Shown: positions 1-12,028 of the stretch, piece by piece
Numbering within the stretch: the stretch's first letter is position 1
Layout: each line of letters begins with the position of its first letter
Virus genome (UHGV): UHGV-1730386
Strand: one strand, 5' to 3'
DNA from: a virus
DNA length: 14,943 nt
Notes under the pieces: generated by a model
What the model saw: only the letters and a program-made list of their open reading frames with translations
The model's database searches: none
What the model was told of the DNA's origin: nothing
Program-made: the position numbers and the translations under genes

Positions 1-381
1 GATAAACTCTTCAGGGTGTTCGGCAAGATACTGTTTCTTCTCATGGGTAGTTTTCCATGAAACATCTACAAAGACGTTAGGAAGCGTCTCTACAACGAAC
101 TTACCATGACCACGTTTATCGGTCTTTACGTCAGTCACTTTAAACTCTTCAGTGTGCATCTTCTTGTGTTTAATCAAGAAGTATGAACGGTGACCACACT
201 CGTAGAAAGATTCTGGAGATATTGAACGGTACATTGCCCCTTCAAACTTCAGCTTAACCCAATTATCATGAGCAGTGTCAAATTCTTCCCAAGAGTTAAC
301 ACGTATTGTCTGAACAGGTACAACCCTGCAAGCATAACCAAGTCCAACAAGGGGTGAGTTGTCAATAACTTCTCGGGCCAT
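1..381 (-). CDS. ATP-dependent DNA ligase, C-terminal portion (motif IV/V and OB-fold region); C-terminus lies beyond window start; out of frame with the upstream ligase ORF
   Basis: Minus-strand ATG at 381..379 opens a stop-free frame to position 1 (127 codons): MAREVIDNSPLVGLGYACRVVPVQTIRVNSWEEFDTAHDNWVKLKFEGAMYRSISPESFYECGHRSYFLIKHKKMH... It contains EGAMYR (ligase motif IV-like, EGxxxK/R) and FLIKHK (motif V-like, hhKxK). This ORF is absent from the supplied track because it has no stop inside the window. Confidence 0.5.
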   Translation of the reverse strand, partial: MAREVIDNSPLVGLGYACRVVPVQTIRVNSWEEFDTAHDNWVKLKFEGAMYRSISPESFYECGHRSYFLIKHKKMHTEEFKVTDVKTDKRGHGKFVVETLPNVFVDVSWKTTHEKKQYLAEHPEEFI

Positions 382-1004
382 GATTTAGTATTGTCACAGA
401 TATCGTACCAGTAAAATTTAAGAAGGTGACGGTTTGGATTGTCAGCATTCTTAATCATCGACACAATATCTTCCAAGTCCCAACCATGAGCATAAATCTC
501 ACCGTCAAAGTCTTCAACTTGTGGGTGACACCTCAGCATTAGGAGTAAATCTGGGATTAGTTCTGCTGGGACGTTATAAACAGTGTTCTCACGAGAATAA
601 GCTGTGAAGCTCACTGTATCAACATCTCTTGAAATCCTGCAACGAACACCATCAAGTTTAGGTTGAGCGTCAGCAGGGAACTTCAAGTACTTTGCGTGAC
701 TAATCTTTACAGCATCGTGAGCAAGCTGTACACCAACCTTTTCAACACTCTCTGCTTCAGATTTCGTGTAAGTATAACCTTTGCGGTCTACTTGTTTCTT
801 GTACTTTGCAGCAACTTCAAAGAGAGCTTGCTGTTCAGCATTACGCTCATTCTTTTTACCGATGTTCTTTGGCTCTGCTGTATATTCTTCAAACATCATT
901 TTGCCGTTTTCTTTGCCATAAGTGGTAACCACCTTATCACCTACAGCAACACACGACCAAACGTTAAAAGAGCCATCTTTATTTTGTTTGTACAGAATTG
1001 TCAT
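249..1004 (-). CDS. ATP-dependent DNA ligase, N-terminal nucleotidyltransferase domain; last ~45 codons before the stop look like out-of-frame read-through
   Basis: The 251-aa ORF carries covalent nucleotidyltransferase motifs in order: motif I PKLDGVRC (KxDGxR, adenylated lysine), motif III FDGEIY, motif IIIa FYWYDI. After YWYDI the frame becomes hydrophobic low-complexity sequence (LLTTHPLLDLVMLAGLYLF...) while motifs IV and V appear in another frame. The ATG at 1004..1002 overlaps the upstream stop (ATGA). Confidence 0.7.
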   Translation of the reverse strand: MTILYKQNKDGSFNVWSCVAVGDKVVTTYGKENGKMMFEEYTAEPKNIGKKNERNAEQQALFEVAAKYKKQVDRKGYTYTKSEAESVEKVGVQLAHDAVKISHAKYLKFPADAQPKLDGVRCRISRDVDTVSFTAYSRENTVYNVPAELIPDLLLMLRCHPQVEDFDGEIYAHGWDLEDIVSMIKNADNPNRHLLKFYWYDICDNTKSWPEKLLTTHPLLDLVMLAGLYLFRQYVLTLGKNLTLLMIIGLS

Positions 1005-1928: not shown

Positions 1929-4628
1929 TTAGTGGACTTCAAGCCACGATTTACCAACCTTACCAGTACCCGTTACCAAAGTATCCTTCTTCAGCCCCAA
2001 GTTTTTAGAAGCTTGACCATAATACCAGTCAGTTACTGCCTTAACTTCTGCTGTCATGCTTTCTGGACATTCCCAGCTTGTTTCGTCGTGGTAAGCACAA
2101 AGTAAACGAGCACCGATAGCTGGCTTACGACCATTTAGTTTCATCAAACCTTCATCAATCATACGACGACAAGCAAGGTTGATTGCTTCATTCTGAACTT
2201 GTGCTTCTGAACCCATCAACAGATAGTTCAAGAGTTTGTGTGGAGATTTACACCACAACCACGCCCCAGCAACCTGAACAAATCCACCTTTAGCAATTGC
2301 AGCAGTTTTACCAAAGACCTCTTCAAGAGCTTTCTTAGTTGCTTTAAAGTCAGCTTCTAAGTTATCAATCAGTTTCTTAATCTTCGGCAAACGAACAAAG
2401 TAAGTCTGCTTAGTCAATGCACCTTCTTGAGTAGTTGAAGCTTTGATGGTCTTAGCAAACTTCTCATCACCCGCACCGAACAGCAGTGCATAGATACCGT
2501 TTTTAGCTTTTTTACGACCCTTACTAATCTCGTGAAGAAGATTCTCATCCTGAGTCATACGACAAGTCAAGATATCCTGCTCATCATTCAAGCTGAAGTA
2601 AATACTGTTCAGTGTGTGAGCATCAGTGCCTGAATAGACTACGTACAAGTCGTTTTCAGAGTCATAACGCAGATACTTGTCAACTTCTGGGTTAAGGTAT
2701 TCGTCGAAGTGTTTGCAGTAATAACGACCATCTTCTTGACGAATAAACTCAATTTCTTCCTTACCTTCTGTTACTGCTTTGGTGAACTCTTTATCACCCA
2801 TAAAGTTACACAGTAACACAAGCTGTGCAGAGTTCATATCAACGGATACTACGTTGGTTCCTTCTTCACAAATCCAGACTGCCCTCATTGGTTCCCCGTA
2901 AACAGCAGCCCCAGAAGGTACGTTCACAATACCATACTGTGTCATACGACCAGTTGAAGTACCAAACACCATTGCACCAGCACTCAAGCGACCATCTGGA
3001 CGAATCTGGTTTAACCAACCTTTCTCGTCATCTTTTGAGTTCTCAATAGTTCTACGTCGGTGCATCAAAGTATAGTACTTCGCAATCTTTTGTCCAAGTT
3101 CACCTTCAATGGTGTCATAAGAAGATTCAGTAAGTTTAGGTGAAGTACGAATCAAGCAAGGCTCAAGCAAATCTGTGTACTTCCTAACAGACCAGTTATG
3201 CTCAATGTAATGAACCCCTTCATGCTCAATGTAGTTCAATCCACAACGTTCAACCATCTCATCCCACTTAGGATGTTTACGAATCATCTTCTTATTATCT
3301 TTGAAGCGACATACCTTGATTGGACGGTTATCAGAATCCTTTTTGTAGTTCCAATCATCAGGAATCCAGCCAACAGATTTCAAGTATTCCTTCACCACTG
3401 CAACTTGAGTCATACGTGAAACTTCAAACTCAATTGGTGTATAAGGTGCATCAACAAGACCTGTGTAACGGCTTGACTCCATTTCAAAGTGATTTACTAC
3501 GTGGTTATTGTAGTACTTCACAGTTTTAACTGTCTTAACTGGCTTCCAATCCTTACACTTCTTGCCAGCCTTAGCATTCAACTCATTGCAGATTGCACGA
3601 GCATCTTTCATTGCTACAAAACCTTCCCTGTACTCTTCACCAGTGACAGTGTTAGTTGGAGTGTAGCAATTACGTTTCTCAATGTTGAAAATCTTTGTAG
3701 TTGGTTTCCCATATGGCTTGATAGGGTACGTCTTCAGTTCCCCTTCACGCATCTGCTCACGATACTTTGTCTTTGGATACTTTGTGATACGTTTCAAACC
3801 ATCTACATGACCAAATGTTTCAACATACTCATTCCATGCCTTGGCAAACTCTTCACCAGTTACTTTACCTTTCGTCTTAATAGTCGGAGGTAAGAACGGT
3901 TCAACTTCAGAGGCTAACTCAGAAGTCATCTTATCCAGTTCTTCTACACAGGACTTCATAAGGTCAATGTTAGCTTTCCAACCATTAATAGCTTGTTGAC
4001 TCATCCAGAAAGAAGTCTCTTTAGCTCGCATGTAGGTTTCGTAAGTATCTACACCACACTTCTTAAGCTTAAGGTATTCATTATCCATAGCACGTTTTGC
4101 TTTGGCGTTGATTCGAATATCCTCAACAACACGGTTAAGAATATCAGCGTTCCACACACCCCACTCTTCAATCTCTGGTTTACGAACACCAACACGAGCA
4201 CCCCATGCAGCCAAGCCATGAGCACCTTTGTAACCTTTTGGTGTAGGTCTATCCATCCACTGCACACGAGATTGTATAAGTGAATCCTGAAAGAAGTCAC
4301 TCCAAGGTTTACACTTAGGATTATCAAAGTTCCACAGGTCAGGTGCAATATGGTTGAACACCCACCAGTCATAACCAAGACCATTGTGGATACAAAGGCG
4401 TTTGGCTTTCAATGCAAACTCCACACCTTCACGCAAACCACCTTTGATGTATTTTGTATACTTGTGACCAAGGATAGGCTCATCAGTGAAAACCCACACA
4501 GCAGGTTCATCACTATCATCTTTGTAATCTGCGAATGCCATAACGTGAGCTTTTGTAAACTCAAGCAGCAACCCGTCAGTTTCTGTATCACCAACCAAAT
4601 GTAAGTTTTCAAAATCTACATTGTTCAT
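1929..4628 (-). CDS. DNA polymerase, family A (Pol I / T7 gp5-like) with N-terminal 3'-5' exonuclease domain
   Basis: 899-aa ORF. Exo I motif VGDTETDGL and an HNGLGYD Exo II-like motif at the N-terminus. Polymerase motif A SVDMNSAQLVLL, motif B (O-helix) RKKAKNGIYALLFGAG, motif C YHDET. GAGGGAG RBS about 6 nt upstream of the ATG at 4628..4626. Confidence 0.92.
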   Translation of the reverse strand: MNNVDFENLHLVGDTETDGLLLEFTKAHVMAFADYKDDSDEPAVWVFTDEPILGHKYTKYIKGGLREGVEFALKAKRLCIHNGLGYDWWVFNHIAPDLWNFDNPKCKPWSDFFQDSLIQSRVQWMDRPTPKGYKGAHGLAAWGARVGVRKPEIEEWGVWNADILNRVVEDIRINAKAKRAMDNEYLKLKKCGVDTYETYMRAKETSFWMSQQAINGWKANIDLMKSCVEELDKMTSELASEVEPFLPPTIKTKGKVTGEEFAKAWNEYVETFGHVDGLKRITKYPKTKYREQMREGELKTYPIKPYGKPTTKIFNIEKRNCYTPTNTVTGEEYREGFVAMKDARAICNELNAKAGKKCKDWKPVKTVKTVKYYNNHVVNHFEMESSRYTGLVDAPYTPIEFEVSRMTQVAVVKEYLKSVGWIPDDWNYKKDSDNRPIKVCRFKDNKKMIRKHPKWDEMVERCGLNYIEHEGVHYIEHNWSVRKYTDLLEPCLIRTSPKLTESSYDTIEGELGQKIAKYYTLMHRRRTIENSKDDEKGWLNQIRPDGRLSAGAMVFGTSTGRMTQYGIVNVPSGAAVYGEPMRAVWICEEGTNVVSVDMNSAQLVLLCNFMGDKEFTKAVTEGKEEIEFIRQEDGRYYCKHFDEYLNPEVDKYLRYDSENDLYVVYSGTDAHTLNSIYFSLNDEQDILTCRMTQDENLLHEISKGRKKAKNGIYALLFGAGDEKFAKTIKASTTQEGALTKQTYFVRLPKIKKLIDNLEADFKATKKALEEVFGKTAAIAKGGFVQVAGAWLWCKSPHKLLNYLLMGSEAQVQNEAINLACRRMIDEGLMKLNGRKPAIGARLLCAYHDETSWECPESMTAEVKAVTDWYYGQASKNLGLKKDTLVTGTGKVGKSWLEVH

Positions 4629-4887
4629 TTTAACTCCCTCTCAAATCATACTGCTTAATACCCTACTCCAATTTTTATGAAAAAGCAAGTTGACAAAGCA
4701 CTTGACAAGGTGTTAATCTTTGCGGAGTGGGTTTTATCTTAATAGACTCTCTTTACAGGTTAACTATACAGATTCTTTAAAACCCTTAAAAGATTTTTAA
4801 TAGCCTTTTAAAAGCTTTAAAGTTATACGTATAGAATACGTAAAGATAAGAGATTAAAATCTTTATAGAAACTTAGTAGAGGCAATT
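4629..4887. promoter_or_regulatory. AT-rich divergent intergenic control region between the leftward polymerase block and the rightward block
   Basis: 259 bp of non-coding DNA flanked by divergent start codons at 4628 (-) and 4888 (+). Contains tandem TTGACAA heptamers (4690..4696, 4702..4708), perfect palindromes CTTTTAAAAG (4805..4814), CTTTAAAG (4815..4822) and TATACGTATA (4824..4833), and a possible leftward promoter (GGTTAA 4758..4763 and ATCTTA 4736..4741 on plus, i.e. TTAACC-N16-TAAGAT on minus). Confidence 0.45.
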
Positions 4888-5310
4888 ATGCAGAGGATGT
4901 ACATTCACCCAGATATACAAAACTTCATTGATGCTTTAGAGAAACTTGAAAGGCTTGACTTAGAAGCACAGAAGGAATACGCTTTCCATCATCGACGTAT
5001 GGTTGATGTGCAGCATGAGATAGAGTTGTCAGAAGGGTACGACGATAAGATGAAGTGTTCAGTCTTTGAGCACATGAAAGAAATATCTTCAGAAAGACGT
5101 AAAGCAAAAGATACTATCTTTTTGATAGATACCTTAAAAAATAAGTTGCAAAATGGAACGGATTTAGATAGTCTATCACAACTGCTTCAGGATGCAGAGA
5201 ATACATGGGACAGGAATTACTTCCCAAGGTCTGAAAAAGGACTTGACTTCTCTTCACAAGAAAGCTTAAGATTATCACGACTAACTATTAACAAAATGAG
5301 AGAGAATTAA
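4888..5310 (+). CDS. hypothetical protein (140 aa)
   Basis: ATG-initiated ORF with upstream AGAGG, first gene of the rightward block. No motif recognised; predicted largely helical and charged. Confidence 0.6.
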   Translation: MQRMYIHPDIQNFIDALEKLERLDLEAQKEYAFHHRRMVDVQHEIELSEGYDDKMKCSVFEHMKEISSERRKAKDTIFLIDTLKNKLQNGTDLDSLSQLLQDAENTWDRNYFPRSEKGLDFSSQESLRLSRLTINKMREN

Positions 5311-5311
5311 T

Positions 5312-6115
5312 ATGACTACTGTAAATGAAATGCTGTCCTCAAAAGGTATTGATAGTAACTTTATGCTCAATACAATTGAAAGTCTTGCTATTGTAATGCG
5401 TAGCAACACATTCAGTTCCAAGGTAATGCCTGAATCATATCAGGTTAATGGAGATATCTCTGATGAGTCATCGTTTCGCTCACAAGTTAAACTCCTTCTA
5501 AGTGACCGTAAACTCGCTCTGGCATCTGTAGCGGTTGGTGTAGATGCCTTTGCTGGTTATATCTTTGACAACATGCAGACTGGTGACTTTAAAGTTCTTT
5601 CTGAGGAAGAGAAAGAAGGAATCCTTAACTTCTCTGAAGATGCTACCTTTGAACTGATTATCAACTCAATTGCAAGTGTTATGGCTGTTCTTGAGAAGCG
5701 TGTTCAAGATAAACTTCCACGCTATGAACAACTTGATTGGGGGTTCGTAGATATCTTTGAGCGAGTGCTGGAGATGGTGACCCTTACTAGTGAGCAACTT
5801 AAAGAGGTTGTTGCGCGTGAAGCTGAACATGGACTTGATGAGATTCAGGTTAAACTTACCGCATTGGTCCCATCAATCATCACTGTAATGGGTATCCACG
5901 CTCTGTTTGAAGTCGCTCAACTGATTGATGCACCTATAGAGTTTGTTGAGCAGATTGCTGGTGATGTAAGTGGTGAAGCACTACGCGAAGTCATTATGCA
6001 GACTGGTGCAGCAGTACTCCAAGAGAAAATTGCTATCCACTTCGGTGATGAGTTTGTTGAGACTCTTCAGGCTATCTCTGAAAAAGAAAAACTGGACTCT
6101 AACCAGATTCACTAA
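5312..6115 (+). CDS. hypothetical acidic protein (267 aa)
   Basis: ATG one nucleotide after the upstream stop. Strongly acidic composition (many Asp/Glu, few Lys/Arg) and no catalytic motif recognised. Followed by a hairpin and T-tract. Confidence 0.65.
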   Translation: MTTVNEMLSSKGIDSNFMLNTIESLAIVMRSNTFSSKVMPESYQVNGDISDESSFRSQVKLLLSDRKLALASVAVGVDAFAGYIFDNMQTGDFKVLSEEEKEGILNFSEDATFELIINSIASVMAVLEKRVQDKLPRYEQLDWGFVDIFERVLEMVTLTSEQLKEVVAREAEHGLDEIQVKLTALVPSIITVMGIHALFEVAQLIDAPIEFVEQIAGDVSGEALREVIMQTGAAVLQEKIAIHFGDEFVETLQAISEKEKLDSNQIH

Positions 6116-6127
6116 TACAATTGTTTT

Positions 6128-6157
6128 CCCCAAGCCTCCTTAATTGGGGGCTTTTTA
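6128..6157 (+). terminator. candidate rho-independent terminator
   Basis: CCCCAA (6128..6133) pairs with TTGGGG (6144..6149) around a 10-nt loop, then GC and TTTTT (6152..6156). Lies immediately after the stop of ORF 5312..6115. Confidence 0.4.
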
Positions 6158-6173
6158 TTATGAGAGGTTTATT

Positions 6174-6911
6174 ATGAAGAGTATTATTGCATTCACTGGT
6201 AAGGCACGTTCTGGTAAAGATACTTCCTGCACCATCGTTAAGAACCACTTGATTGAAGAAGGCTACGCTGTTAAAGTCTTTGCGTTCGCAGATAATCTTA
6301 AAGCAACTGCTGGAGATATCTTTGACTTAGATTGGCAAGACTTGTATGGCGACACCAAAGAGAAACCTCAGAAATTTGACTTAACATTCTCAAATGTGCA
6401 TAGTAACGTTAAATATTCTTTCTTCAGACACTTGAAAGATAAAGGTATACATAATGATGAGAAACTTTGTGGTGAAATCACAGACAGACTTATCAAAGAA
6501 CTGAAGAAGGTTGCTAAACCGACTCTCTTGACAAGGATGGGTTTCAGGAATGAATACATCTTCTCTTCACGACAAATCCAACAAGTTTGGGGTAGTGAGG
6601 TTATTCGTAAAATCCTTGGGGAGCGTTTCTGGATTATTGACCTTGCAGAAAGAATAGAAAAGTTTTATGGTGAAACAGAAAGAAAAGGCCACATTCCAGT
6701 AATCCTAATTTGTGATTTGAGGTTTGATATTGAAGCTGAATTTATCAAGAGCTATAATAGTCAAATCATCGAAGTGACCAGAAATGGTATTGAGCAGGTT
6801 GCTTCACACCATTCTGAAAAAGGTATCTCTACACGCTTCGAAAGAGATATTATTCAGAACAACGGAACAATAGATGAACTTGCAGATAAACTGAAAGTCA
6901 TCATAAAATAG
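6174..6911 (+). CDS. deoxynucleoside monophosphate kinase (T4 gp1-like dNMP kinase)
   Basis: N-terminal P-loop IIAFTGKARSGKDT, matching the GxxRSGKDT signature of phage dNMP kinases. The track start at 6144 is a TTG inside the terminator; I use the ATG at 6174, preceded by GAGAGG. Confidence 0.7.
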   Translation: MKSIIAFTGKARSGKDTSCTIVKNHLIEEGYAVKVFAFADNLKATAGDIFDLDWQDLYGDTKEKPQKFDLTFSNVHSNVKYSFFRHLKDKGIHNDEKLCGEITDRLIKELKKVAKPTLLTRMGFRNEYIFSSRQIQQVWGSEVIRKILGERFWIIDLAERIEKFYGETERKGHIPVILICDLRFDIEAEFIKSYNSQIIEVTRNGIEQVASHHSEKGISTRFERDIIQNNGTIDELADKLKVIIK

Positions 6912-6924
6912 AGAGATATTGAAG

Positions 6925-7116
6925 ATGAGAGATAATAACTTGAAAGTTGTTGACCACCGTAGTGTAGAACTCTCATCTCTTTCTAAAGAAGTAATGATGG
7001 AGCGACTTGAAAGGGTCGCTTCTCGTCGGAAAGAGATTGCAGAAGAAATTCATGAATTAGATAAGATTGAGAATGGTCTTAAAGCAGAACTGCGTCGTAG
7101 AGGTGTAAATGGCTAA
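6925..7116 (+). CDS. hypothetical small charged/coiled-coil protein (63 aa)
   Basis: The track ORF starts at TTG 6919; I use the ATG at 6925. Sequence is Glu/Lys/Arg-rich and heptad-like. Its stop overlaps the primase-helicase start (ATGGCTAA, 7109..7116). Confidence 0.45.
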   Translation: MRDNNLKVVDHRSVELSSLSKEVMMERLERVASRRKEIAEEIHELDKIENGLKAELRRRGVNG

Positions 7117-9097
7117 ACCAAGAAAATTGAAAGAAGCTGGTCAATTTGTAGGTCATTGTGCATGTCCTAAATGTGATTCTTCAGATGCAGGTTCAATTTA
7201 TCATCACGACGACGACTCATATTCAATGACTTGTTTTAGTTGTGGTAAAGGTTTTCCAGAGTGGGATTTTGATAAAGGTCAAATTGTGAGCACAATGTCC
7301 ACAGGTTCTGATAGTAAAAATCGTAAGTTTCGTGGTATGGATTTAGATGATGTTAAAGAAAACCTCGAAGCAATGGATTTAAAAGACAGGAAGATTCCTG
7401 CAAAGGTTTTAGAACGTCTTGGTATTAAAGTTGACGTAGATGAGAATGGAGATATTGACGCTCATTTCTATCCAACTTATAAGAAGGATGAAGATGGGAA
7501 ATTGAAGCATGTTGGTTATCGAGTTCGTCACAAATACCCTGATGACCACCCTAAAGAACAGCTTCGTGGTAAGTTAAAAGACTTCTCAGGCGGTGTAGGT
7601 GATATTAAAGGTGAACTGGCGATGTTCGGTTCATGGATTGCACCTGAAGGTGGTAATCGCTTATTCATCTGGGAAGGTGAGATGGAATGTGCTACAGCAG
7701 TCTATATGACTTCTTTAGCAATTAAGGATAAGTCACGTAGAAAGAACTACTGTCACGTATCTGTCCCATCTGGTGCAAACGTTAAGTCTATCAAGGAGAA
7801 CTATCAGTACATCACATCCTTTGATGAGATTTACCTTTGCTTCGACAACGATGAAGCAGGTGCTAAGGTAACTAAGGAAGCTGCTGGTATCCTTCCTATT
7901 GAAAAGGTTCGACTGTTCCAGTATCCTGAAGGTGTTAAAGACCTTAGCGAGTGGTGGACTAAATTCTTTAAAGACAAAGATACAGTCTTAGAAGGGTTTA
8001 AGCAGAGAATCTATAATGCACCTCGTTACTGCCCTGCTGGTATTAAGAACTTTGCAGACGGTTTCGAAGCAATGAAGAATCGTGGTCAGATTCCTTTGAT
8101 TCCTTTTCCAGAATCTTTCGGGGATTTGAACAAGTTAACTTATGGTGGTTATGGGTTAGGCGAAATCACTACACTGGCTGCACCGTCATCTGTTGGTAAA
8201 TCTGCCTATACTCGTGAAATGATTTATACAGCATGGAAAGATACTGAGTACAACATTGGTGTAATTCCTGTAGAAGATACTTACGAAGAACTTATGGAAA
8301 TGCTCTGTGCAATCCATCTAAGTAAGCAGATTTCAGAGATTCCTTACGATGAGCGAGATTGGGATGAGCTAAAAGGAGCACATGCGGATTTGTCAAAAGG
8401 TCGTCGTATTCACATCGTAGACCATCAAGGGGCAATTGACCAAGACAACTTGCTAGAATTTGTTGACTATCTTGTTAACAGTCTTGATTGTAAGATTATC
8501 ATCCTTGACCCAATTACATTGGCTTTGTCACGCTCTGATACTGACGAAGAAGAAGTCCTGTCTGAACTGTTGCGTCGTTGCAAGCGTTATCAGTATGCTC
8601 AGGTAAACGTATGTCACGTTCGTAAGAGCGCAGGTGGTCAGAAAGCTAACTCTGAAGGTGGAGATATCTCTGAAGAAGATATCAAGGGTTCTGGTGCATA
8701 CTTCCAGATTTCTATGAACAACATTTTGTTAATGCGCAACAAGGTTGACCCAGACCCTGTTAAGAAAAACTTGACAAAAATCAAGTTAACTAAATGTCGT
8801 CGTCATGGTAAATCCACTGGTATTGCTGGTCACACTTGGTATAATCCAGAAACAGGCCGTCTTATCAAGGCTGCTGGTTGTGGTGTTGATATTGATGGTG
8901 CAGCAGAGAATATCCGTCAGCAGTATGGTATTGGTGATGCTGAAGACCATTACGATGATACCATGCCACACTATGAAGATGAAGCATTTGACCGTGATAC
9001 TGGAGAGTTGTATACTCAAGAGCAACGTCAGAGTTCTACAATTCCTCCTGCAATCAATGAGGATGGTGATGATGACTGCCCGTTTGAAACTGACTGA
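7109..9097 (+). CDS. bifunctional DNA primase-helicase (T7 gp4-like: zinc ribbon, TOPRIM primase, DnaB-family helicase)
   Basis: 662 aa. N-terminal zinc ribbon CACPKCDS...CFSCGKG. TOPRIM acidic motifs WEGEMECA and CFDNDEAG. Helicase Walker A AAPSSVGKSAY and Walker B IIILDPIT. Acidic C-terminus ending DDDCPFETD. Confidence 0.9.
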   Translation: MAKPRKLKEAGQFVGHCACPKCDSSDAGSIYHHDDDSYSMTCFSCGKGFPEWDFDKGQIVSTMSTGSDSKNRKFRGMDLDDVKENLEAMDLKDRKIPAKVLERLGIKVDVDENGDIDAHFYPTYKKDEDGKLKHVGYRVRHKYPDDHPKEQLRGKLKDFSGGVGDIKGELAMFGSWIAPEGGNRLFIWEGEMECATAVYMTSLAIKDKSRRKNYCHVSVPSGANVKSIKENYQYITSFDEIYLCFDNDEAGAKVTKEAAGILPIEKVRLFQYPEGVKDLSEWWTKFFKDKDTVLEGFKQRIYNAPRYCPAGIKNFADGFEAMKNRGQIPLIPFPESFGDLNKLTYGGYGLGEITTLAAPSSVGKSAYTREMIYTAWKDTEYNIGVIPVEDTYEELMEMLCAIHLSKQISEIPYDERDWDELKGAHADLSKGRRIHIVDHQGAIDQDNLLEFVDYLVNSLDCKIIILDPITLALSRSDTDEEEVLSELLRRCKRYQYAQVNVCHVRKSAGGQKANSEGGDISEEDIKGSGAYFQISMNNILLMRNKVDPDPVKKNLTKIKLTKCRRHGKSTGIAGHTWYNPETGRLIKAAGCGVDIDGAAENIRQQYGIGDAEDHYDDTMPHYEDEAFDRDTGELYTQEQRQSSTIPPAINEDGDDDCPFETD

Positions 9098-9571: not shown

Positions 9572-10426
9572 ATGTCTAAAGTTGTTAAAATGAAATCTCC
9601 GGTAGAAAAATACAACGGTAAAGAACTTGAAACTTATCGTTACCTGCTGAAAGATGTTTGGTTCTACTACTTGAATACTATTCCACGTCCTCAGAAGGGC
9701 AAGTCTGTAGACAAACATTTCCCAGGCAAAGACTGTAATTACAGCGTTTCAATTCTGGCAAAAGACGGTAACAAGCTCTTTAAAGAGTTCACCAAGTCTA
9801 AAAAAAATCCAGATGGTTGGGATAAGGTCACTACAGAGACTGTTGATGCAGATGACTTTGAAGAGAAGTTTGGTTGTGAGCCTCCATTCGAAGCTGACAC
9901 TTATTACATCCTGAAGGTTAGCCGTTCAGCAGCTTACAAAGATGGTGCTGTATGGTCAGCAAAACAGAGTTTCCCTGTGATGCTGGTTGAAGAACTGAAC
10001 GGTAAACGTGTTGCGGTTAAGCAACCTATGAAGAAAATTAAGGCAGCAAAATCTGACAAGCATGACGATGACAAGACTTACGATGTTGTCTGTCCAGATA
10101 TTGCAGTCGGTAATGGTTCTTTTGGTAGTGTGATTCTTTCGACTCACTTCTACACCTTCGAAGGTAACGTTCTAACTAAGCCAATTCAGGAGCAGTTTAT
10201 CATTGATACTCTGGTTCCATACACTGGTGGTACTGGTGGTGCAACCGAGACTGAACTTGATGAAGACGAACTGGCACTGCTTGGTCTCGCAGGTGTTGAA
10301 GACAACGGTGAAATCTCTGAAGAAGATGCAAAAGATTCTGATGATGATAAAGGTGGTGACGACGATGACGACGACCTGCCAACACCGGATGATGACGACG
10401 AAGACTTCGAGACTGACGACGAATAA
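9572..10426 (+). CDS. putative single-stranded DNA-binding protein with acidic C-terminal tail (T7 gp2.5-like architecture)
   Basis: 284 aa with a long poly-Asp/Glu tail ending DDDDDDLPTPDDDDEDFETDDE. Sits between primase-helicase and exonuclease, as in T7-like replication modules. Has the best promoter-like sequence in the window upstream and a terminator downstream. Call rests on architecture and position, not on sequence identity. Confidence 0.5.
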   Translation: MSKVVKMKSPVEKYNGKELETYRYLLKDVWFYYLNTIPRPQKGKSVDKHFPGKDCNYSVSILAKDGNKLFKEFTKSKKNPDGWDKVTTETVDADDFEEKFGCEPPFEADTYYILKVSRSAAYKDGAVWSAKQSFPVMLVEELNGKRVAVKQPMKKIKAAKSDKHDDDKTYDVVCPDIAVGNGSFGSVILSTHFYTFEGNVLTKPIQEQFIIDTLVPYTGGTGGATETELDEDELALLGLAGVEDNGEISEEDAKDSDDDKGGDDDDDDLPTPDDDDEDFETDDE

Positions 10427-10488: not shown

Positions 10489-11529
10489 ATGAATCAGTAT
10501 ACACTTACAAAGCTCCCAGAAAGCGTTACACACGTCTTCATTGACGCAGACAGCATTGCTTACAAGGGTGCTTGTGTAGTTGAAAAAGCAAAGTACAAGT
10601 ATGTGAATAAACTTACCGCTGAAGAGTCTGATGACTTTGATAGTGCTAAGTTAGCTTCACAATGGTTAGCTGACCAGAGAGTTCTTACAGAGGAACTTGG
10701 ACTTGACTTTGATGAAGATGAGTGGGAAAGACAGACTTGGAAGGAAGCCAAGAGCGAAAAAGAAGCTATTATGGCAACTCAGCAGGTTCTTCAAGAATGG
10801 CTTAAAGTTGTCGGTAAAGAGCGTCAATGGATGGGTTACCTGACTGAGAAGGGTGTTCACAAACACAAAGACATTAAAGGTCTTGAACATCAATATCAAG
10901 GTAACAGGAAAGATGCGGTGACACCTACGCACCTAGTTGCTTGTCGTGAGTATCTTCTGTCACGACCTGAGTTTAAGCTTCTCAAAGGTGGCTTTGAAGC
11001 TGACTCAATCGTTATTGCAAAAGCTGAAAAGATGGGTAAAAAAGCTGCTCTTATGAGTATTGATAAAGACCTTCGTCAAGCTGAAGGTACATATTGTATT
11101 GATATGACTTATGAGAAAGCACCACTTATCTTTATTGCTGATAATAACATTGGAGAGATTTGGGATTGCCCTATCAAATCCAAACCAAAAGCTAAGAAGA
11201 CAGTCGGAGTAGGCTTCAAATTCCTCTGCTATCAAGCTGTAGCAGGTGATAATGCAGATAACTACTTTGGCCTTAAGGGTGCTGGTAAAGTTGCTGTAAT
11301 GAACGCTCTGGAAGGTAAAACAACCTATAGAGAATGTTTAGATGCTGTTTATGAGTTGTATGCAAAGAAAGACTCTTACACCTATGTGTCGTGGGACGGT
11401 CAAACAATTACCAGAACACCTTTAGAGTTAATGCACCAGCACTTCTGGATTGCATACCAAGAGCGAAATCCAAAGGATGATTTCACGTTTGAAAAATATG
11501 GATGGGAGCCTACTATGAATGAAGATTAA
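10489..11529 (+). CDS. 5'-3' exonuclease / flap endonuclease (T7 gp6 / RNase H-like, PIN-fold family)
   Basis: 346 aa. N-terminal acidic motif VFIDADSIAYKG, central IDKDLRQAEG, and C-terminal AGDNADNYFGLKGAGKVAV, arranged like the metal-binding Asp clusters and helix-hairpin-helix region of phage 5'-3' exonucleases. GGAGG RBS at 10480..10484. Confidence 0.7.
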   Translation: MNQYTLTKLPESVTHVFIDADSIAYKGACVVEKAKYKYVNKLTAEESDDFDSAKLASQWLADQRVLTEELGLDFDEDEWERQTWKEAKSEKEAIMATQQVLQEWLKVVGKERQWMGYLTEKGVHKHKDIKGLEHQYQGNRKDAVTPTHLVACREYLLSRPEFKLLKGGFEADSIVIAKAEKMGKKAALMSIDKDLRQAEGTYCIDMTYEKAPLIFIADNNIGEIWDCPIKSKPKAKKTVGVGFKFLCYQAVAGDNADNYFGLKGAGKVAVMNALEGKTTYRECLDAVYELYAKKDSYTYVSWDGQTITRTPLELMHQHFWIAYQERNPKDDFTFEKYGWEPTMNED

Positions 11530-12028
11530 AGGTTTCGGTAATTGTCCTGTTTATGGTCATTGGGTATCTTTATGCGGGGAAGTTGACCCCGCTAAACTGT
11601 TCGGGTTTGTCTACCTAGTCTATTGTAAGAAAACTGGACAGTATTACATTGGTAAAAAACAGTTCAATAGTATCACTAAGAAGAAGGTTGCTGGAAAGAC
11701 CAGACGTAAGGTTGTCACCAAAGAGAGTGACTGGATGGTTTACCAGACTTCTTCTGAGTACATTAAGAAAGATATTGAAGCTTTTGGTATGAAAGAGTTT
11801 GACTTCTACATTGTGCAAACCTATTATACACGAGGTGGATTAGTCTACGGAGAAGCAAATCTCCAACATAAGTTCGATGTTATGACAAAAAGGATTGACT
11901 CGAAACTCAGACTCTTCTACAATGCCAATATTGCAGCTATCAAGTTCCTTACAAAAGAAACTTATGAAGAAGCTGAGAAACGTATTAACAAAATCATGAA
12001 ACTTAACGAGAGAGAAAATCATGTTTAA
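11519..12028 (+). CDS. putative GIY-YIG family nuclease (single-domain, 169 aa)
   Basis: FGFVYLVYCKKTGQYYIGKKQF matches the GIY-(10-11 aa)-YIG pattern with VYL replacing GIY. It is followed by a basic stretch with Arg (KTRRK), then FDFYIVQ, a conserved-position Glu (GEANL) and YNAN (the GYN-like Asn). Start overlaps the exonuclease stop by 11 nt. Confidence 0.5.
   Translation: MKIKGFGNCPVYGHWVSLCGEVDPAKLFGFVYLVYCKKTGQYYIGKKQFNSITKKKVAGKTRRKVVTKESDWMVYQTSSEYIKKDIEAFGMKEFDFYIVQTYYTRGGLVYGEANLQHKFDVMTKRIDSKLRLFYNANIAAIKFLTKETYEEAEKRINKIMKLNERENHV

Follow-up and report, generated by a model that had tools for sequence, protein, structure and literature searches.

The A-B locus and the divergence of ORF B

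Here, we analysed two adjacent open reading frames (ORFs), A and B, of the UHGV virus genome UHGV-1730386, a stretch of 14,943 nucleotides (nt) that we call the window, with an emphasis on B, which diverges far more than any other gene of the block in which it lies. By its sequence, the window can be assigned to a Felix O1-like myovirus of the genus Mooglevirus. The region from 4600 to 6200 shows 99% DNA identity to the Shigella phages ESh22 and ESh21 (Ounavirinae, Mooglevirus) and is 83-84% identical to Suspvirus phages, e.g. SUSP2 and mistaenkt. Both ORFs run exactly between the limits given in a preliminary description of this DNA, and the locus comprises the following features:

4629..4887, no strand assigned: divergent control region between the DNA polymerase gene and ORF A
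4888..5310, plus strand: ORF A, 140 amino acids (aa), ATG start, isoelectric point (pI) 5.6; PHROG 4039, function unknown
5312..6115, plus strand: ORF B, 267 aa, ATG start, predicted all-alpha; PHROG 4251, labelled 'minor tail protein'
6132..6158, plus strand: intrinsic-terminator-like hairpin, AAGCCTCC-TTAATT-GGGGGCTT followed by TTTTT

The neighbourhood of A and B is a DNA-metabolism module, in which they are the first genes of the rightward block, separated by the 259-nt intergenic region from the polymerase gene. The same gene order is found in SUSP2, Sf13, Felix O1 and Bas63, and metagenomic relatives with a B protein of 18-27% identity retain the order polymerase, B, deoxynucleoside monophosphate (dNMP) kinase, primase-helicase. 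Both ORFs are real and conserved genes: by tblastn, 300 phage records contain homologues of A, among them records of Erwinia and Pectobacterium Ounavirinae, and 259 contain homologues of B. Where inspected, these records are Felix O1-like by name or taxonomy, and a handful carry other host names. The IMG/VR loci, 28 for B and 30 for A, all lie on contigs of 51-94 kb, mostly of 81-94 kb, and when 1.84 billion cluster representatives were searched exhaustively with a profile, the matches to B amounted to 10 clusters, 6 of them full length. As far as these searches reach, the B family appears to be confined to Felix O1-like phages.

How variable is B compared with its neighbours? The amino-acid identities of the window proteins to those of Sf13 / SUSP2 / Felix O1 (in %) are:

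DNA polymerase: 94 / 94 / 87
A: 87 / 78 / 63
B: 46 / 84 / 42
dNMP kinase: 75 / 64 / 57
primase-helicase: 94 / 93 / 93
exonuclease: 94 / 92 / 89

B is the outlier and evolves several times faster than the replication enzymes around it. Megablast alignments of the window to other Moogleviruses omit exactly the B gene. This Mooglevirus window carries a B allele of the Suspvirus type (84%), whereas the other Moogleviruses compared carry the 46%-identical allele, and B alleles have been swapped between genera. We distinguished at least three allele classes, about 40-48% identical in pairwise comparison, and a fourth (P0014) that stands at 43-49% from the two with which it was compared. Such a pattern would be that expected of an accessory gene recombining between genera. 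The ratio of nonsynonymous to synonymous substitution rates (dN/dS) against SUSP2 is 0.145 for B, 0.046 for the polymerase and 0.050 for the primase-helicase, so that B is under purifying selection, about three times looser than that acting on the two enzymes. For A, the ratio is 0.118, likewise purifying. Next to B, the greatest divergence in the block is found in the dNMP kinase (6174-6911; 57-75% identity, dN/dS 0.16). A, B and this kinase make up a local island of variable genes, flanked by two enzymes of high conservation.

In the Erwinia phage SunLIRen (locus L007, 4952-6359), the slot of B holds the acidic gp116 of 283 aa, and in the Pectobacterium phage Wc4-1 (locus L008, 4938-5759) an acidic protein of 273 aa; Erwinia phages have an additional acidic ORF of 187 aa at this place. 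Both gp116 and the 273-aa protein resemble B in their slot, which extends from the A orthologue to the dNMP kinase or primase-helicase, in length and in acidity (pI 4.5-4.8), but not significantly in sequence. Homology to B was not demonstrable (hhalign E 0.06-0.09, BLASTP E above 0.2), and a tblastn search with Erwinia gp116 found Kolesnikvirus-type relatives only, with a diversity too low for a better profile. These analogues may represent either an extreme divergence of the same fold or a non-orthologous replacement.

Charge, conservation and predicted fold of B

The preliminary description had called B strongly acidic and, by analogy with acidic early proteins such as T7 Ocr, had considered a role as DNA mimic or anti-restriction protein. 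Indeed, B contains 45 Asp and Glu against 21 Lys and Arg, with a pI of 4.41 and a net charge of -24, and the acidity is kept in the family (pI 4.25-4.8). Its charge per residue is, however, far below that of Ocr: B has 16.9% Asp and Glu and -0.09 charges per residue, Ocr 29% and -0.24, so that a protein 2.3 times the size of Ocr has about 40% of its charge density. In the same window, the 284-aa ORF at 9572-10426 is about as acidic per residue (pI 4.44, net -27), and the primase-helicase has a similar total charge (net -27).

An Ocr-like protein would imitate DNA with its negative surface and thereby titrate type I or other restriction enzymes or DNA-binding defence proteins. The acidity conserved across the B family would suit such a function, as would the all-helical structure predicted for B and its place in the first transcription unit after the control region. 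B also shares with T7 Ocr (gp0.3) a location near the start of a transcription unit and dispensability in laboratory hosts, in the case of Ocr those without restriction. In contrast, Ocr has about 116 aa instead of 267 and is encoded at the leading end of its genome, whereas B lies in a replication module. Moreover, E23 is the only acidic position that is invariant in the B family, so that a conserved charge pattern is not evident.

Which parts of B are conserved? B matches the PHROG 4251 profile with E 7.7e-117 (residues 1-265 of 266 profile positions). At threshold, no Pfam, NCBIfam or PADLOC family matched B, also when every family member was scanned, and the B family profile found nothing below E = 0.3 among all PDB sequences. 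Pfam scans of all family members at permissive thresholds gave scattered matches in one or two members, which we rejected as noise. The invariant residues are M1 (the start codon), T3, K11, E23, N32, G76, I189, K239, G245 and F248. Besides M1, these nine positions form no catalytic-looking set, in agreement with the earlier remark that B has no recognisable catalytic motif. Best conserved are an N-terminal segment (TVNEML-EKGI) and a C-terminal segment (KIAI-FGDEF). The C-terminal tip is conserved as well (I/L-H or L-Q) and lies on a low-confidence tail of the structural model. This tip recalls the interaction tails of T7 gp2.5 and gp4.

A first AlphaFold model of B, calculated with 10 close homologues, had a predicted local distance difference test score (pLDDT) of 54 and was discarded; a Foldseek search of the PDB with this model returned noise only (E above 0.28, template-modelling (TM) score below 0.3). 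Second and third word-indexed searches added two new sequences, and an exhaustive HMMER search added five divergent full-length members of the family. Because these five members were included, a second model reached a pLDDT of 88.7 and a predicted TM score (pTM) of 0.88. It consists of fourteen helices, with essentially no beta structure. Since an independently predicted Moogle homologue superposes on it with a TM score of 0.93, the fold is corroborated. According to this model, B is compact, all-helical and an orphan in its fold. Foldseek found no convincing structural relative in the PDB, and among the viral models of BFVD the matches were confined to the B family itself. Neither in sequence nor in fold did B match Ocr, ArdA, Gam or other solved proteins, nor did it match gp59, lambda P, gp2.5 or proteins like these. 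Thus, the profile and structure searches suggested in the preliminary description yielded no clear homology to a structural or replication protein family, and the lack of resemblance to Ocr and to the other solved proteins speaks against an Ocr-like mimic.

Two conserved hydrophobic helices, at about 68-86 and 184-203 (19-residue Kyte-Doolittle hydropathy 1.4-1.96), would form the core of the compact B model. Alternatively, they might insert into or dock on the inner membrane, and B would then be a membrane-associated helical bundle acting in superinfection exclusion or in the modulation of the envelope or of lysis timing. The overall hydropathy of B is near zero. A transmembrane prediction based on a summed transfer-energy scale did not separate a holin control from B and was uninformative. 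We consider membrane association improbable. The same two features, i.e. a hydropathy near zero and two hydrophobic helices, also set B apart from the known small DNA mimics.

Published data on orthologues and the role of B

The orthologues of B are ORF98 of Felix O1 (NP_944960) and gp49 of Bas63 (QXV81740). In the Bas63 genome (MZ501086), bas63_0049 was identified as the orthologue with 41% identity over the full length (E 1e-78). The Felix O1 and Bas63 loci resemble the window in that the orthologues align over their full length (B 41-42%, A 63%) and have the same flanks, control region and terminator; they differ in that the window has a different B allele class. The available data sheets of the PhageMaP preprint (10.1101/2024.10.10.617714) list the fitness of gene 49 knockouts of Bas63, with three replicates per strain:

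S17: +0.98 / +0.97 / +1.12
MG1655: +0.42 / +0.85 / +0.48
TerY-P: +0.56 / +0.12 / +0.29
AVAST type 4: -0.10 / +0.69 / +1.03
Sir2-HerA: +0.29 / +1.41 / +0.32

In the same sheets, the Bas63 polymerase and primase-helicase have values of -0.7 to -2.6; most structural genes are negative in S17 and MG1655, and knockouts of the polymerase, primase-helicase, ligase and gp55 were not viable (10.1101/2024.10.10.617714). According to these published Bas63 data, B is dispensable for growth on laboratory E. coli. We rejected B as a core replisome component (processivity factor, helicase loader or single-stranded-DNA-binding protein), as the g49 knockout is viable and neither the sequence nor the fold of B matches replisome proteins.

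The dispensability of B in laboratory hosts, together with its fast evolution, would also be compatible with an Ocr-like function. However, the type I system of MG1655 is described as intact, and it was in this strain that T7 gene 0.3 (Ocr) received a more essential score (10.1101/2024.10.10.617714). In this EcoKI-positive host, where the same method flagged T7 Ocr, the g49 knockout has a positive fitness and thus costs nothing. Furthermore, a remarkable sensitivity of Bas63 to several restriction-modification systems has been reported. The timing of expression points in the same direction. By reverse-transcription PCR, ORF97 and ORF98 of Felix O1 belong with ORFs 96, 99, 101 and 104 to a set whose mRNAs reach their maximum at 25 min; the mRNA of ORF98 lies outside the set that peaks at 5 min and peaks with the polymerase (PMC3185647). 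An mRNA that peaks in mid-infection with the replication genes is at odds with an Ocr-like early protein. Taken together, we regard the Ocr-like DNA mimic proposed for B as very unlikely, while charge-based mimicry against some other target is still a conceivable mode of action. If Felix O1-like phages have an anti-restriction gene, gp32 of the leftward block of Bas63 is a better-labelled candidate than B. PhageMaP labels it 'restriction alleviation protein lar*' by manual BLASTp annotation, and in the available sheets it is needed, with values of about -0.7 to -1.75 (10.1101/2024.10.10.617714).

Is B a structural protein, as its database label implies? PHROG 4251, RefSeq and UniProt call it a minor tail protein, i.e. 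a low-copy component of the virion. Gp98 is not among the 17 virion proteins of Felix O1 (Gp23-Gp77) found by two mass-spectrometry approaches (PMC3185647). Nor does B occur in the table of virion gene products of Sf14, a phage of the same genus as the window, which contains gp20 and gp29-gp55 only and marks detection by mass spectrometry (PMC11821841). Cryo-electron microscopy of Bas63 revealed at least 23 virion gene products, and the structural proteins named in the accessible part of the report, gp3 to gp21, do not include gp49 (PMC12609058). The same part of the report describes one capsid-decoration protein whose gene lies outside the structural module, at a distance of over 10 kb, and one small helical density at the tip of the puncture device (PMC12609058). 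This density was left unassigned and is, besides the label, the one observation in favour of a tail role of B, but the authors attribute it to a gene of the baseplate module. Furthermore, B is encoded in the replication module instead of the structural module, its mRNA peaks at 25 min and not with the 60-min group (ORFs 72, 73, 76 and 77), which the Felix O1 authors assigned to packaging and morphogenesis (PMC3185647), and its knockout is fully viable. The original GenBank record of Felix O1 (AF320576) had described ORF98 as 'unknown'. The label is unsupported and at variance with the virion inventories covered here, the gene position, the expression timing and the viability of the knockout, and we consider a role of B in the tail extremely unlikely.

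The main rival to the role that we favour for B is a non-essential accessory subunit of replication or nucleotide supply, e.g. an adaptor whose conserved terminal segments would link the dNMP kinase, or a different enzyme, to the polymerase or primase-helicase, with a benefit for replication only under limiting conditions. In favour of such an adaptor, B keeps its slot after the polymerase and before the dNMP kinase and primase-helicase without exception, even at 18-27% identity, the mRNA peak of ORF98 coincides with those of these replication genes, and B has the conserved C-terminal tip on the low-confidence tail of the model. The adjoining dNMP kinase is likewise unusually divergent and likewise dispensable in Bas63, where its knockout (g50) was viable (10.1101/2024.10.10.617714). 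On the other hand, the presumed partners are 87-94% conserved and B only 42-46%, which would be odd for a tightly co-evolving subunit. The alleles of B and the kinase do not co-vary (84% vs 64% for SUSP2, 46% vs 75% for Sf13), and B resembles the known replisome accessory proteins neither in sequence nor in fold. We therefore consider an adaptor of this kind possible, though doubtful.

At the plainest level of description, A and B are an ordinary pair of conserved hypothetical phage genes. Beyond that, we tentatively favour the reading that B serves as an accessory factor and acts by binding a protein, with a host factor, a defence component or a phage DNA-metabolism protein as its partner. 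Binding is suggested as its mode, and not catalysis, because the nine invariant positions contain no catalytic set while N- and C-terminal segments are conserved. In this reading, A and B form a short unit running from the conserved promoter region through both genes to the conserved terminator; B would be made together with the replication proteins and bind its partner, and the diversification of B would track variation in this partner. T7 class II DNA-metabolism genes include scattered small non-essential inhibitors of host factors, namely gp1.2, gp4.5, gp5.5 and gp5.9. Like B, they are dispensable or conditional and embedded between replication enzymes, and they bind a host protein; unlike B, they are much smaller, and they are unrelated to it in sequence, so that we regard them as an analogy and not as members of the same group. 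Of the preliminary proposal that A and B occupy the place of early host-takeover genes, the idea of an accessory or host-interaction role fits with the dispensable Bas63 orthologue, with B as the most divergent gene of its block and with the exchange of its alleles; the early slot does not fit with an mRNA peak at 25 min and a location in the replication module.

Several observations weigh against a protein-binding accessory factor. Its mechanism is drawn from the evolutionary pattern and the genomic context alone, and relaxed constraint on a minor replication accessory also fits both the fast evolution of B and its dispensability. In the text of the PhageMaP preprint, g49 is not named as counter or trigger of any of the 12 defence systems analysed in Bas63; the data sheets considered here are those of three of these systems, and the sheets considered give no values for gene 48, the orthologue of A (10.1101/2024.10.10.617714). 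Pooled knockout screens can overlook defects by co-infection complementation, a caveat that the authors raised for T7 genes 4 and 5 (10.1101/2024.10.10.617714). In addition, the two hydrophobic helices and the near-zero hydropathy leave room for membrane association.

A more far-reaching version of the favoured reading, which we regard as rather unlikely, would make B the founder of a family of counter-defence or host-takeover proteins with a new fold, which binds a variable host protein of DNA metabolism or immunity, possibly by its negative surface. The three or more allele classes (40-48% identical), swapped among Mooglevirus, Suspvirus and Felixounavirus, would in this case represent variants for particular hosts and have a share in determining which Shigella, E. 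coli and Salmonella hosts are infected.

The diagnosis of Salmonella makes use of Felix O1-like phages, which are also considered for biocontrol and therapy. B is present in about 250 of their genomes, many with the label 'minor tail protein', and its correction has practical value. B is the one rapidly diversifying and recombining gene in an otherwise highly conserved replication module, and as such a candidate host-interaction factor. Because a fast-diversifying gene here coincides with a fold without known relative, B is a reasonable target in the search for a new phage-host interaction.

ORF A, flanking signals and neighbouring genes

ORF A matches PHROG 4039 over its entire length (E 2.3e-78, residues 1-140 of 140), and its orthologues are ORF97 of Felix O1 (NP_944959) and gp48 of Bas63 (QXV81739; bas63_0048, 63% identical). 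Across six genera-level sequences, 45 residues are invariant, including four histidines, the motif VDxQHExELS and a basic RRxxKDT patch. This conservation suggests a specific, possibly nucleic-acid-related role. The profile of A found nothing below E = 1 among PDB sequences, and no Pfam, NCBIfam or PADLOC family matched at threshold, also when every family member was scanned. One distant metagenomic relative lacks A and retains B. Purine-rich ribosome-binding sites precede both genes, AGAGG at 4878-4882 for A and GAGAG at 5300-5304 for B. Because the stop codon of A (TAA, 5308-5310) ends one base before the ATG of B, translational coupling is plausible, and the two genes, which overlap in Sf13, are probably coupled. 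A, which is much better conserved than B and co-expressed with it, may be a partner or a regulator.

The preliminary description had placed the two genes downstream of a control region and upstream of a terminator, and conserved signals indeed lie on both sides. The 259-nt intergenic region, whose strong conservation reaches as far as Felix O1, contains a direct repeat of TTGACAA (hexamers at 4690-4695 and 4702-4707, 12-nt spacing), for which no convincing -10 element was found (repeat at 4690-4708 of the window). A promoter scan located a promoter-like TTAAAA-18-TAGAAT at 4808-4837 with 9 of 12 positions, which overlaps GTATAGAATA at 4829-4838; the number of sites found was not above that of shuffled sequence. 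Among five aligned sequences (the window, Sf13, SUSP2, Felix O1 and Pectobacterium phage Wc4-1), the TTGACAA repeat is kept in the first four and GTATAGAATA is invariant in all five. The authors of the Felix O1 study found no obvious promoter in this control region (PMC3185647). We speculate that the repeat and GTATAGAATA may be phage-specific regulatory sites, and the promoter function of the region is one that we infer from its sequence.

The terminator-like hairpin has an 8-bp stem and a folding energy of -13.4 kcal/mol, with a z of -1.67 against shuffles, which is modest taken alone. It closes off the unit of A and B, 16 nt ahead of the first base of the dNMP kinase gene (6174), and is kept in Sf13, SUSP2, Felix O1 and Bas63. 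In a more distant relative, the metagenomic locus L004, the stem letters differ yet pair by compensatory changes, again followed by a T-run. A and B thus form a two-gene unit that is bounded by conserved signals, whose promoter and terminator activity we infer, and that heads the rightward DNA-metabolism transcription unit. The other genes of the module are:

Leftward block, beyond the polymerase: several small ORFs and the DNA ligase
1929-4628, minus strand: family-A DNA polymerase, leftward block, divergent from ORF A
6174-6911, plus strand: dNMP kinase, rightward block, after ORF B
Rightward block, between the dNMP kinase and the primase-helicase: 65-aa ORF
7109-9097, plus strand: primase-helicase, rightward block
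9572-10426, plus strand: 284-aa acidic ORF, rightward block, followed by the 5'-3' exonuclease

Compared with ESh22, whose ligase of 367 aa is intact, the DNA ligase gene of the window (249-1004, minus strand) appears frameshifted, with a break near 350-365. One frame reads MTILY...TKSWPEK and continues as nonsense up to the stop at 249, and the other, REVIDNSPLV..., agrees with ESh22. This break could stem from an indel in sequencing or assembly, or the gene could truly be split; PhageMaP has two adjoining 'DNA ligase' entries for Bas63, g39 and g40 (10.1101/2024.10.10.617714).

The 284-aa protein belongs to PHROG 3877 (function unknown) and is 84-94% conserved across genera. Its Bas63 orthologue gp55 is essential, with values of -0.5 to -2.4 in the available PhageMaP sheets (10.1101/2024.10.10.617714). 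Its position and charge make it a candidate for the single-stranded-DNA-binding protein so far missing from this T7-like replisome.

After the exonuclease, a basic ORF of 169 aa (11519-12028, plus strand) shows a faint match to GIY-YIG endonucleases of group I introns (E 0.03), and at the same position metagenomic relatives have a SegE-type GIY-YIG gene. Its counterparts in SUSP2, Sf13 and Felix O1 are labelled 'NAD synthetase', a label that is probably doubtful, and ESh22 has an additional HNH endonuclease gene at this position.

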